Of a DNA stretch of 51,751 nucleotides, positions 40,995 to 42,192 are shown in pieces (position 1 is the stretch's first letter; each line of letters opens with the position of its first letter). This DNA is from an uncultured Candidatus Peribacteria bacterium. GTDB lineage: Bacteria > Patescibacteriota > Gracilibacteria > UBA1369 > LOWO2-01-FULL-3. A program made the translations under genes and the position numbers. The notes beneath the pieces were generated by a model. It searched no databases, was not told the origin of the DNA, and saw only the letters and a list, made by a program, of their open reading frames with translations. Location: contig CAZCLD010000002.1 in NCBI GenBank assembly GCA_964499425.1, positions 1 to 51,751 on the forward strand, read 5' to 3'.

Positions 40995-41240
40995 ATGACA
41001 CGAGAACAACTACAAAAAGCCATTCTAAAACTTCTAGTAATATCTACTGTGCCTGATCATTATAAGAGAATGCTTGAAACCCTGCTTCCTGCAATGGATC
41101 TTCAAACTCTCCAGGCTACCTATGATCCCCTTTTGCTCGAGCAAAAGAAGATGAAGCGATTGGCGCAAAAGAAAAAGAGGGTTGAGCACAAGTACAAAGT
41201 AATGGTTGAGAAATTGGCTAAGATGGAAATAGAAAAGTAG
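40995..41240 (+). CDS. Orphan 81-aa helical protein with basic coiled-coil tail
   Basis: Starts 8 nt after the upstream gene and is the last gene before the promoter/ncRNA unit. Confidence 0.6.
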   Translation: MTREQLQKAILKLLVISTVPDHYKRMLETLLPAMDLQTLQATYDPLLLEQKKMKRLAQKKKRVEHKYKVMVEKLAKMEIEK

Positions 41241-41268
41241 AATTCTATGTTTGGATTTGCTCTAGGCC

Positions 41269-41296
41269 TTGACTTCTCCGCGTTTTTTGTTATAAT
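41269..41296 (+). promoter_or_regulatory. Strong promoter (TTGACT-16-TGtTATAAT) driving a non-coding unit
   Basis: TTGACT at 41269-41274 and an extended -10 TGTTATAAT at 41288-41296. No plausible ORF follows. Confidence 0.65.
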
Positions 41297-41302
41297 GCAA
41301 TC

Positions 41303-41573
41303 TTGTCTAAATTAGCTGCACAAACGCTAAATTTGGCAAGATGAATTACAGACTTTTGAAATTTTGAGCTTGATTGCAAAATATGAGAGCTGTATAGTGC
41401 AAAGGCTAAAGTGCTGGGGTGCGGCACAGTAAATAATGGCCAATTGACATGTCGAAAACGGTTTACCGTTATCGGAATACTTAACGGATTAGGGTATTAA
41501 AGGCTTTTCTAGGGCGTTTCTACATCTAAGTCTAGTTAAGGCCCCTCCCCCAAGCGGGGAGGGTTTTTTATTT
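41303..41573 (+). ncRNA. Candidate structured ncRNA (~270 nt), family unassigned
   Basis: Bounded by a near-consensus promoter and an intrinsic terminator. The predicted 5' end (41302-41327) is imperfectly complementary to 41514-41540, with about 20 Watson-Crick pairs plus 1 G-U over 26 positions. The longest ORF is 8 codons. Confidence 0.5.
41543..41573 (+). terminator. Rho-independent terminator
   Basis: CCCTCCCC-caagc-GGGGAGGG followed by TTTTTTATTT. Confidence 0.8.
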
Positions 41574-41617
41574 CTTGAGTTTTTGGAGGTAGCTGATAAT
41601 ATGGAGCTCGCGAACGT

Positions 41618-41695
41618 GGTGAGTGTAGCTCAGTTGGTTAGAGCACCTGGTTGTGGTCCAGGGGGTCGTGGGTTCGAACCCCATCACTCACCCCA
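41618..41695 (+). tRNA. tRNA-His (anticodon GTG) with encoded G-1 and CCA
   Basis: G-GTGAGTG-TA-GCTC/AGTTGGTTA/GAGC-A-CCTGG-TTGTGGT-CCAGG-GGGTC-GTGGG-TTCGAAC-CCCAT-CACTCAC-C-CCA. The extra 5' G opposite C73 is the His identity feature. Confidence 0.9.
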
Positions 41696-41748
41696 TTGAC
41701 AAGTCGTGCTTTGCATGCTATGGTCTAGTGCAATTAACAGTACCTCTT

Positions 41749-42192
41749 ATGGATGATAGAGAAGCCCGCGTGAACGATTTACATGTTGGTGGATTCAGGA
41801 AAACCACCATTGCTAAACATACTGACGAACATGGTGCCCCTGTTGACGGGGAATCTGGCAGGGCAGGCTATTTGGGACTAAGCCCTTCTGCCAGGGAAGT
41901 TTTGGAGATTGATATTGGTGAAATTTCGGGCGTTGTCAGAGATGGCATTGAAGGTGTTTCTAATGCTCTGATTGTTGGCGCCAGAGATGGAGTTGTCCCT
42001 ATGACAGCATCTTTGAGAAAGGCCTTGGGGGTAGAGAAAACAACCGCTCTGGACCAGAAAGAGACCCCTGGAGATATTGTGAGCTTGGTAAAGCGGGGTA
42101 ATCGTCTTGTTCTCATTGTTACTTCGAAGGGTGGTGCCCCTGTAGATGATTATGTAGCTAAAATGGCAGATAGGACTCCTACTCCGAGATAG
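41749..42192 (+). CDS. Hypothetical 147-aa protein
   Basis: Start moved to ATG 41749 because the tracked ORF begins inside tRNA-His. The protein is G/A/V/R-rich and appears higher in G+C than the surrounding genes. Confidence 0.5.
   Translation: MDDREARVNDLHVGGFRKTTIAKHTDEHGAPVDGESGRAGYLGLSPSAREVLEIDIGEISGVVRDGIEGVSNALIVGARDGVVPMTASLRKALGVEKTTALDQKETPGDIVSLVKRGNRLVLIVTSKGGAPVDDYVAKMADRTPTPR

Follow-up and report, generated by a model that had tools for sequence, protein, structure and literature searches.

We analyzed a 51,751-nucleotide stretch of the genome of an uncultured Candidatus Peribacteria bacterium (hereafter the window) and found that positions 41269-41573, as judged from their sequence and that of their relatives, are a genuine, separately transcribed gene for a non-coding RNA that is specific to the Peribacteria order. 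The conserved and probably functional part of this small RNA is its final ~100 nt (41480-41569), terminator hairpin included, a module that had been missed in a preliminary description of the unit. The tip of the module is complementary to sites in a few other transcripts, and we predict, at roughly even odds, that the small RNA is a trans-acting base-pairing RNA. Peribacterial genomes measure about 1 Mb and contain numerous orphan genes, and a literature search returned no report of non-coding, regulatory or structural RNAs in Peribacteria or Peregrinibacteria. The assembly analyzed here comprises 1.36 Mb in 97 contigs and is 93% complete.

The unit begins with a sigma-70-type promoter at 41269-41296 on the + strand (TTGACT, a 16-nt spacer and TATAAT with a TG extension), just as previously described; it scores 11/12 and is the top-scoring site of a 2-kb scan, suggesting that the transcript starts near 41302-41303. 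A promoter-like site is likewise present directly upstream of the small RNA in all 18 relatives listed. The strong intrinsic terminator that had been proposed was recovered by a terminator scan, as an 8-pair stem on the + strand (41543-41563) that includes 7 G-C pairs and is followed by six T. Concerning coding capacity, the preliminary description was right that there is no real ORF between these signals, but the longest frame is not the 8 codons that it gave: the longest + strand ATG frame has 11 codons (41449-41484), and GTG and TTG starts open + strand frames of 29 and 22 codons. None of these frames is conserved, because that stretch is absent altogether from most relatives. The unit therefore has the makeup of a small RNA gene, with its own promoter and intrinsic terminator and without a conserved ORF. 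The entire unit also folds somewhat better than shuffled sequences (z = -2.3; 6/200 shuffles equal).

Comparison with relatives divides the RNA into a variable 5' domain and a conserved 3' module. The small RNA is ~270 nt long in the source genus and ~100-125 nt in most relatives; among the 18 relatives listed, seven genera have predicted RNAs of 240-282 nt, one has an RNA of 162 nt, and the others range from 96 to 150 nt. A genome of the same genus (G001) aligns over the whole unit with 86% identity, and other genera align over the 3' part only (roughly 41449-41585) with about 80%. Given that relatives match only the 3' part and mostly have shorter RNAs, the ~180-nt 5' domain is a genus-level elaboration. 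Its first element, on the + strand like all those that follow, is a local 5' hairpin (41302-41340), present in the minimum-free-energy fold, with a folding energy of -12.1 kcal/mol here versus -7.6 in the sister species and, by eye, a G-C to U-A exchange between the two; a similar hairpin is found in genus G026. The adjacent stretch (41341-41452) is alignable within the genus only and undetectable in other genera, and the seven long-form RNAs gave no consensus structure for the 5' domain. A small hairpin at 41453-41474 (stem, UUUA loop, stem) is common to the long forms and is kept in G020, G036, G026 and G017 with other stem and loop letters.

These comparisons bear on the architecture proposed earlier, in which pairing of 41302-41327 with 41514-41540 would close the molecule into a rod or multi-branch structure. 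Such a helix can be drawn, with 19 pairs, internal loops and -11.2 kcal/mol, but it is not conserved. It is matched by 15/1000 shuffles and missing from the minimum-free-energy fold, and in the sister species, where the 5' arm has changed and the 3' arm is identical, the best duplex has 15 pairs, and its -5.4 kcal/mol is that of an average shuffle. Closure by the two ends has to be given up, as the 3' arm is occupied by the conserved stems P0/P1 described below and the 5' end makes its local hairpin. Two mutually exclusive hairpins had also been suggested inside the unit. The first (41457-41461 with 41466-41471) is indeed kept in other genera with compensating changes, but its rival is not, 41480-41485 being paired with 41535-41540 instead; the coordinates assigned to the second and third hairpin segments had been one base low. 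Covariation, to which the preliminary description had looked for confirmation, is found in the last ~100 nt, but neither the 5' domain nor the end-to-end helix is conserved.

The conserved core (41480-41540, + strand) is predicted to form one long irregular hairpin, P0/P1/P2, in the RNAalifold consensus of 21 sequences as well as in the long forms. MAFFT alignment with RNAalifold resolves an outer stem P0 (41480-41485 with 41535-41540), a bulged stem P1 (41486-41496 with 41521-41532) and a weak apical hairpin P2 (41499-41519; -3.4 kcal/mol alone), and places a spacer at 41533-41542, between the core and the terminator hairpin P3 (41543-41569). The lower stem features a bulged C, a G-G mismatch and G-U pairs, and the core by itself folds to the consensus structure, with -33.6 kcal/mol. 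At the tip of P2 lies a 15-nt motif, GGCUUUUCUAGGGCG (41502-41516, + strand), which is our proposed pairing region; it is unchanged in 21/21 aligned sequences, and its 13-nt core is present in 48/55 distinct members. In family f16 (L094, L095 and L097), duplication of the apical hairpin has produced a second, nested motif copy, and a short partial duplication is present at the same position in G010 and G052 (L018 and L019).

To assess the structure quantitatively, we counted pairs over 54 distinct sequences. At the predicted pairs, 95% of cells are paired, compared with 81% in shuffles and at most 59% with slid partners, and 20/30 pairs are changed on both sides, with far lower values in the controls. 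These sequences were aligned by fitting them to the covariance model, which favours the structure; an independent MAFFT alignment gives the same pairs. P3, which carries the 5-nt loop CAAGC (41551-41555) and then a U run in the source genome, shows changes on both sides at all 12 of its stem pairs. Its loop is CAAGN in 54/55 distinct members, and at least four U follow it in 47/55, every exception belonging to family f2. With its near-constant loop, and with the U run lacking in some f2 members, P3 is more than a terminator. At four f2 loci (L093, L104, L106 and L108), P3 without a U run is followed within a few bases by CUUG; this is complementary to the CAAG of the P3 loop, with which it could form a small pseudoknot.

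The covariance model, built from the 21-sequence MAFFT/RNAalifold alignment, detects the small RNA in 71 of the 141 genomes of the Peribacteria order, always as a single strong copy; these include 16/18 genomes of family f1, 18/19 of f2, 12/13 of f10, 15/16 of f16 and 3/3 of f6. The same model gave no convincing match in 150 genomes from the rest of the class. Weak matches outside the order and in families f3, f5 and f7 were rejected as bare terminators that do not adjoin tRNA-His. In Rfam 15 at gathering thresholds, two tRNAs alone pass in the window and no family is reached in the unit, the comparison by which the candidate was originally to be judged; at E up to 10, the interval 41100-41800 yields terminator-type chance matches only, of 18 bits or less. 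The idea of a structured, lineage-specific non-coding RNA is thus upheld, by a covarying 3' module that occurs in one order only.

The clearest indication of what the small RNA might do comes from sequences complementary to its tip. The exact 14-mer of the motif has 37 occurrences in 25 of the 37 genomes of the family, against a chance expectation of about 0.01 per genome and 0 for the reversed control. Across the 141 genomes of the order, a 13-mer occurs almost only in the RNA-carrying families f1, f2, f10, f16 and f17, plus two singletons, usually with 1-4 extra sites per genome; about 70 genomes from families that lack the small RNA do not contain it, and the reversed control has 7 matches in all. 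At about 40 of about 43 extra sites read, the complement of the motif lies on the evidently transcribed strand, although such counts overstate the support because kin are not independent. Sixteen sites follow a consensus promoter at a distance of some 35-70 nt and belong to the 5' region of a ~430-nt RNA unit. About 16 others are found 5-25 nt ahead of an intrinsic terminator, most of them within the 3' untranslated region of a zinc-ribbon gene. The remaining sites are a recX leader, a recX coding site, the rnhB start codon (in G095) and two positions before small ORFs. The longest pairing, read by eye, comprises 20 perfect base pairs and is found in G036 and G019.

When 89,947 windows of the source genome were ranked as duplex partners of the 28-nt tip, the site in the ~430-nt RNA (contig C70) came first, with a duplex energy of -31.6 kcal/mol that was reached by 0/1000 shuffles. 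The zinc-ribbon gene (C8:34712-34888) has a complementary match of 12 nt, and a 13-mer site on contig C47 was discarded as a coding-strand coincidence. We counted 41 complementary 11-mer words in this genome versus a shuffle maximum of 45, so that a single genome gives no signal at this word length. When the whole ~100-nt core was hybridized in silico to long targets, the C70 site had a duplex z-score of -0.4; as unfolding carries no penalty in this calculation, whole-core energies are uninformative, and the 28-nt tip was used for this reason.

The ~430-nt RNA is a second unclassified structured RNA, located in the source genome on the minus strand of C70, in roughly the last 550 bases (L192), with relatives at 13 further loci (L050, L052, L054, L057, L058, L060, L063, L145, L148, L151, L152, L160 and L162) and apparently two copies in G036 and G019. 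It is laid out as a consensus promoter, a 5' hairpin, the motif complement, repeated A/C-rich linkers, an H-type pseudoknot and a terminator; between genera, both pseudoknot stems show two-sided changes. Rfam contains no match to this RNA, and no ORF is conserved within it. A small protein encoded within it was considered, as one frame looked conserved, but was rejected: stop codons interrupt this frame in G011 and G045, and its letters covary as two helices. The other recurrent partner follows a gene for a conserved protein of 58-73 residues with a CxxC...CxxC zinc ribbon (L191), for which no Pfam or NCBIfam family was found above threshold. In families f1, f2 and f10, the complementary site falls in the ~110 nt after this gene, just before the terminator; the terminator-proximal sites of f16 are not tied to the zinc-ribbon gene.

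What is found in silico is therefore a conserved, accessible stretch together with conserved complementary sites on the sense strand of other transcripts, with some exceptions. In f2 genomes that carry a U-to-A change in the motif, 2/3 extra sites have the matching change, which among genomes with the common form appears at 1 listed extra site only. Genus g16 has a diverged tip and has lost motif and sites alike; no compensating partner site was found there, the near matches being coding-sequence coincidences (a DnaB-like N-terminus and a repeat protein), and the zinc-ribbon 3' untranslated region of this genus holds no convincing complement. Genome G050 keeps a complementary site after its zinc-ribbon gene though the tip of its RNA is short and lacks the motif. 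Families f6, f9 and f15, in turn, have replaced the tip by a short hairpin with other loops, keeping the lower stem and the CAAGY loop. On account of the exceptions in f6/f9/f15, G050 and g16, and of the kinship among genomes, we put the probability of the pairing model at about one half.

Based on these data, we propose that the weakly paired tip of the long hairpin would present its invariant 15-nt sequence to other transcripts, while the P3 hairpin with its CAAGY loop would double as the intrinsic terminator. The tip would open and pair over 12-20 bases with complementary sites. One partner would be the 5' region of the ~430-nt pseudoknotted RNA, and another the 3' untranslated region of the zinc-ribbon gene, at the site that immediately precedes the terminator; recX and rnhB would be possible partners in those genomes where they carry a site. 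We infer that these RNAs are expressed and pair with each other; regulation could run in either direction, and its outcome could be a change in stability, processing, termination or titration.

The replacement of the tip in f6, f9 and f15 with the lower stem kept suggests a second function, probably protein binding, which leads to the first alternative. The small RNA could be part of a ribonucleoprotein, with a protein bound to the lower stem and the CAAGY loop; the antisense matches would then be secondary or lineage-restricted. No elements are conserved more widely than the lower stem and the CAAGN loop, which persist in those three families; the last hairpin often lacks a U run in f2 and so is kept beyond any need for termination; and a strong consensus promoter with a single gene copy resembles a housekeeping RNA. 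Such a role is however at odds with the presence of the small RNA in about half of the order only, and it leaves unexplained why strand-specific complementary sites are restricted to carriers of the motif. We consider the ribonucleoprotein reading doubtful, though plausible enough to rank second to pairing. The two readings are not exclusive, and both functions may coexist. A more speculative idea, which we think unlikely and put forward tentatively, is that the small RNA, the ~430-nt RNA and possibly the zinc-ribbon protein form a new two-RNA particle or circuit, in which the small RNA would dock by 13-20 bp onto the 5' end of the ~430-nt RNA, as a core housekeeping device and not an ordinary stress regulator.

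The genomic position of the small RNA raises another alternative. As the preliminary description had noted, a tRNA-His gene lies downstream, and ARAGORN and Rfam both identify it (GUG anticodon) at 41619-41695 on the + strand. The small RNA is on the same strand and directly upstream of tRNA-His at 20/20 loci and at 34/37 further ones, that is 54/57 loci in at least six families. Such linkage would fit a stretch that is functionally part of the tRNA-His transcript, as a leader, a part of the precursor or a read-through attenuator, and in the eight f2 members that lack a four-U run after the last hairpin read-through is plausible. Against this, the full terminator is present in 47/55 members, and the gap between the small RNA and tRNA-His varies from 45 to 360 nt, with unrelated insertions in several genomes. 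Every locus read in f1, f2, f6, f10 and f16 has a promoter-like site in the gap; in the window this is TTGAGT, 16 nt and TAATAT (41575-41602, + strand), which scores below the scan threshold there and is found as the same block before tRNA-His in f1. No T-box or other tRNA-related leader was matched in Rfam, and no conserved structure competes with the terminator. The small RNA and tRNA-His are thus two adjacent transcription units, with the promoter-like site and, in some genomes, the insertions between them. The co-transcription by read-through proposed earlier need not be invoked, since a promoter-like site separates terminator and tRNA in every relative examined, and we hold a function within the tRNA-His transcript to be improbable.

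Two observations on the surroundings of the gene may be added. At L008, L011, L012 and L016, the gap is enlarged by 150-270 nt of hairpin-rich sequence, which the source genome lacks and which may represent small insertion elements near the tRNA gene. On the other side, an 81-residue gene (window 40995-41240), the last of an upstream cluster of orphan genes, ends just before the promoter of the small RNA, and a similar C-terminal end is seen by eye before the small RNA in several f1 genera (L005, L006, L009, L014 and L017). From this shared end it follows that the order of orphan cluster, small RNA and tRNA-His is kept within f1.

It is also conceivable that the 13-15-nt word is a signal at the DNA level, such as a site bound by a protein or the terminus of a small mobile element, and that its RNA-level features are a by-product. 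The word does occur in both orientations, at 2-5 sites per genome, and it stands a few tens of bases behind a promoter in the ~430-nt RNA gene as well as in the short forms of the small RNA. Yet it lacks palindromic symmetry, is oriented with transcription at about 40 of 43 sites, and occurs at syntenic, not scattered, positions. Moreover, the word lies within a covarying structure and has been duplicated in f16 as a nested hairpin. We consider a DNA-level signal very improbable.

Finally, that the unit is a diverged universal RNA (6S-like RNA, SRP RNA, tmRNA or a detached piece of 23S rRNA) is scarcely credible and has largely been refuted already, even though its ~270 nt and strong promoter in the source genus fit the 6S type and Rfam finds no 6S, SRP RNA or tmRNA in the source assembly. 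The preliminary description had seen no hallmark of tmRNA, RNase P RNA, SRP RNA or a T-box, and indeed none of them matches, at E up to 10 in Rfam. It had left room for a 6S-like RNA, a suggestion that is not supported. The resemblance to 6S RNA (RF00013) is limited to the source genus, where the small RNA is ORF-less, ~270 nt long and preceded by a strong promoter; unlike 6S RNA, a rod of about 180-200 nt whose paired ends close it around a large central bubble, it is mostly ~100-125 nt long and conserves neither a closing stem nor a central bubble. RF00013 has no match in the source genome, and an end-to-end helix of the 6S kind is lost in the sister species and absent from the long-form consensus.

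A diverged SRP RNA was considered and rejected, as neither SRP RNA nor the Ffh M domain was found in the order. RF00169 matches 0/141 order genomes and RF01854 0/5, and the Ffh M domain (PF02978) was detected in 0/61 genomes versus 14/14 controls; there is accordingly no SRP RNA to be found. The hairpin loops of the small RNA are UCU and CAAGY, not the GNRA tetraloop of SRP RNA helix 8. SRP subunits are absent from many bacteria of the candidate phyla radiation (CPR) (PMC8080830).

Two separately encoded tmRNA pieces were considered in turn, as the source genome has SmpB (C4:12530-12955) and no tmRNA was found in its assembly by ARAGORN or Rfam. Neither ARAGORN nor RF00023 finds a tmRNA at the small RNA locus, and 52/61 relatives have an ordinary tmRNA at other loci, on which ground the idea was rejected. 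A detached 3' piece of 23S rRNA, comparable to the chloroplast 4.5S RNA, was suggested by a loose resemblance to helix 101 and was rejected, the 23S being full length in four relatives and its 3' end lying before the 5S gene on C55 of the source genome. No complete 23S gene is assembled there, the 5S gene being 427 bases from the start of C55. Given SmpB, the tmRNA of relatives and this 23S 3' end, the missing tmRNA and 23S are assembly gaps and not losses. RNase P RNA is on contig C6 in the source genome, and over the order tmRNA, SmpB and RNase P RNA are found, while SRP RNA and the Ffh M domain are not.

Taken together, these results point to an order-wide, single-copy RNA gene with a covarying structure and few predicted partner sites, which yields testable RNA-RNA pairs in unculturable bacteria; the small RNA and the ~430-nt RNA are both candidates for new RNA families. 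Among known systems, the small RNA is most readily compared with the trans-acting RNAs RyhB, GcvB and RsaE. Like them, it has its own promoter, an intrinsic terminator within the mature RNA and no ORF, and it would use a short, weakly structured, invariant stretch against several unlinked transcripts, including the start-codon region of rnhB in one genome. It has no sequence or Rfam relationship to these RNAs and is confined to one CPR order; its proposed pairing stretch caps a long conserved stem, and its main predicted partners are a non-coding RNA and a 3' untranslated region, not ribosome-binding sites. The predicted pairing between parts of two non-coding transcripts recalls GcvB-SroC, the chb spacer with ChiX, and 3'ETS-leuZ with RyhB and RybB. 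As in such sponge pairs, one partner derives from a 3' end and the gene adjoins a tRNA gene, but here the tRNA-linked RNA is no tRNA spacer, having a promoter and a terminator of its own. The display of a complementary stretch at the tip of a stem-loop is shared with CopA/CopT and RNA I/RNA II. Those antisense RNAs are encoded opposite their targets and are fully complementary to them, whereas the small RNA is encoded elsewhere and would share 12-20 nt with its partners.
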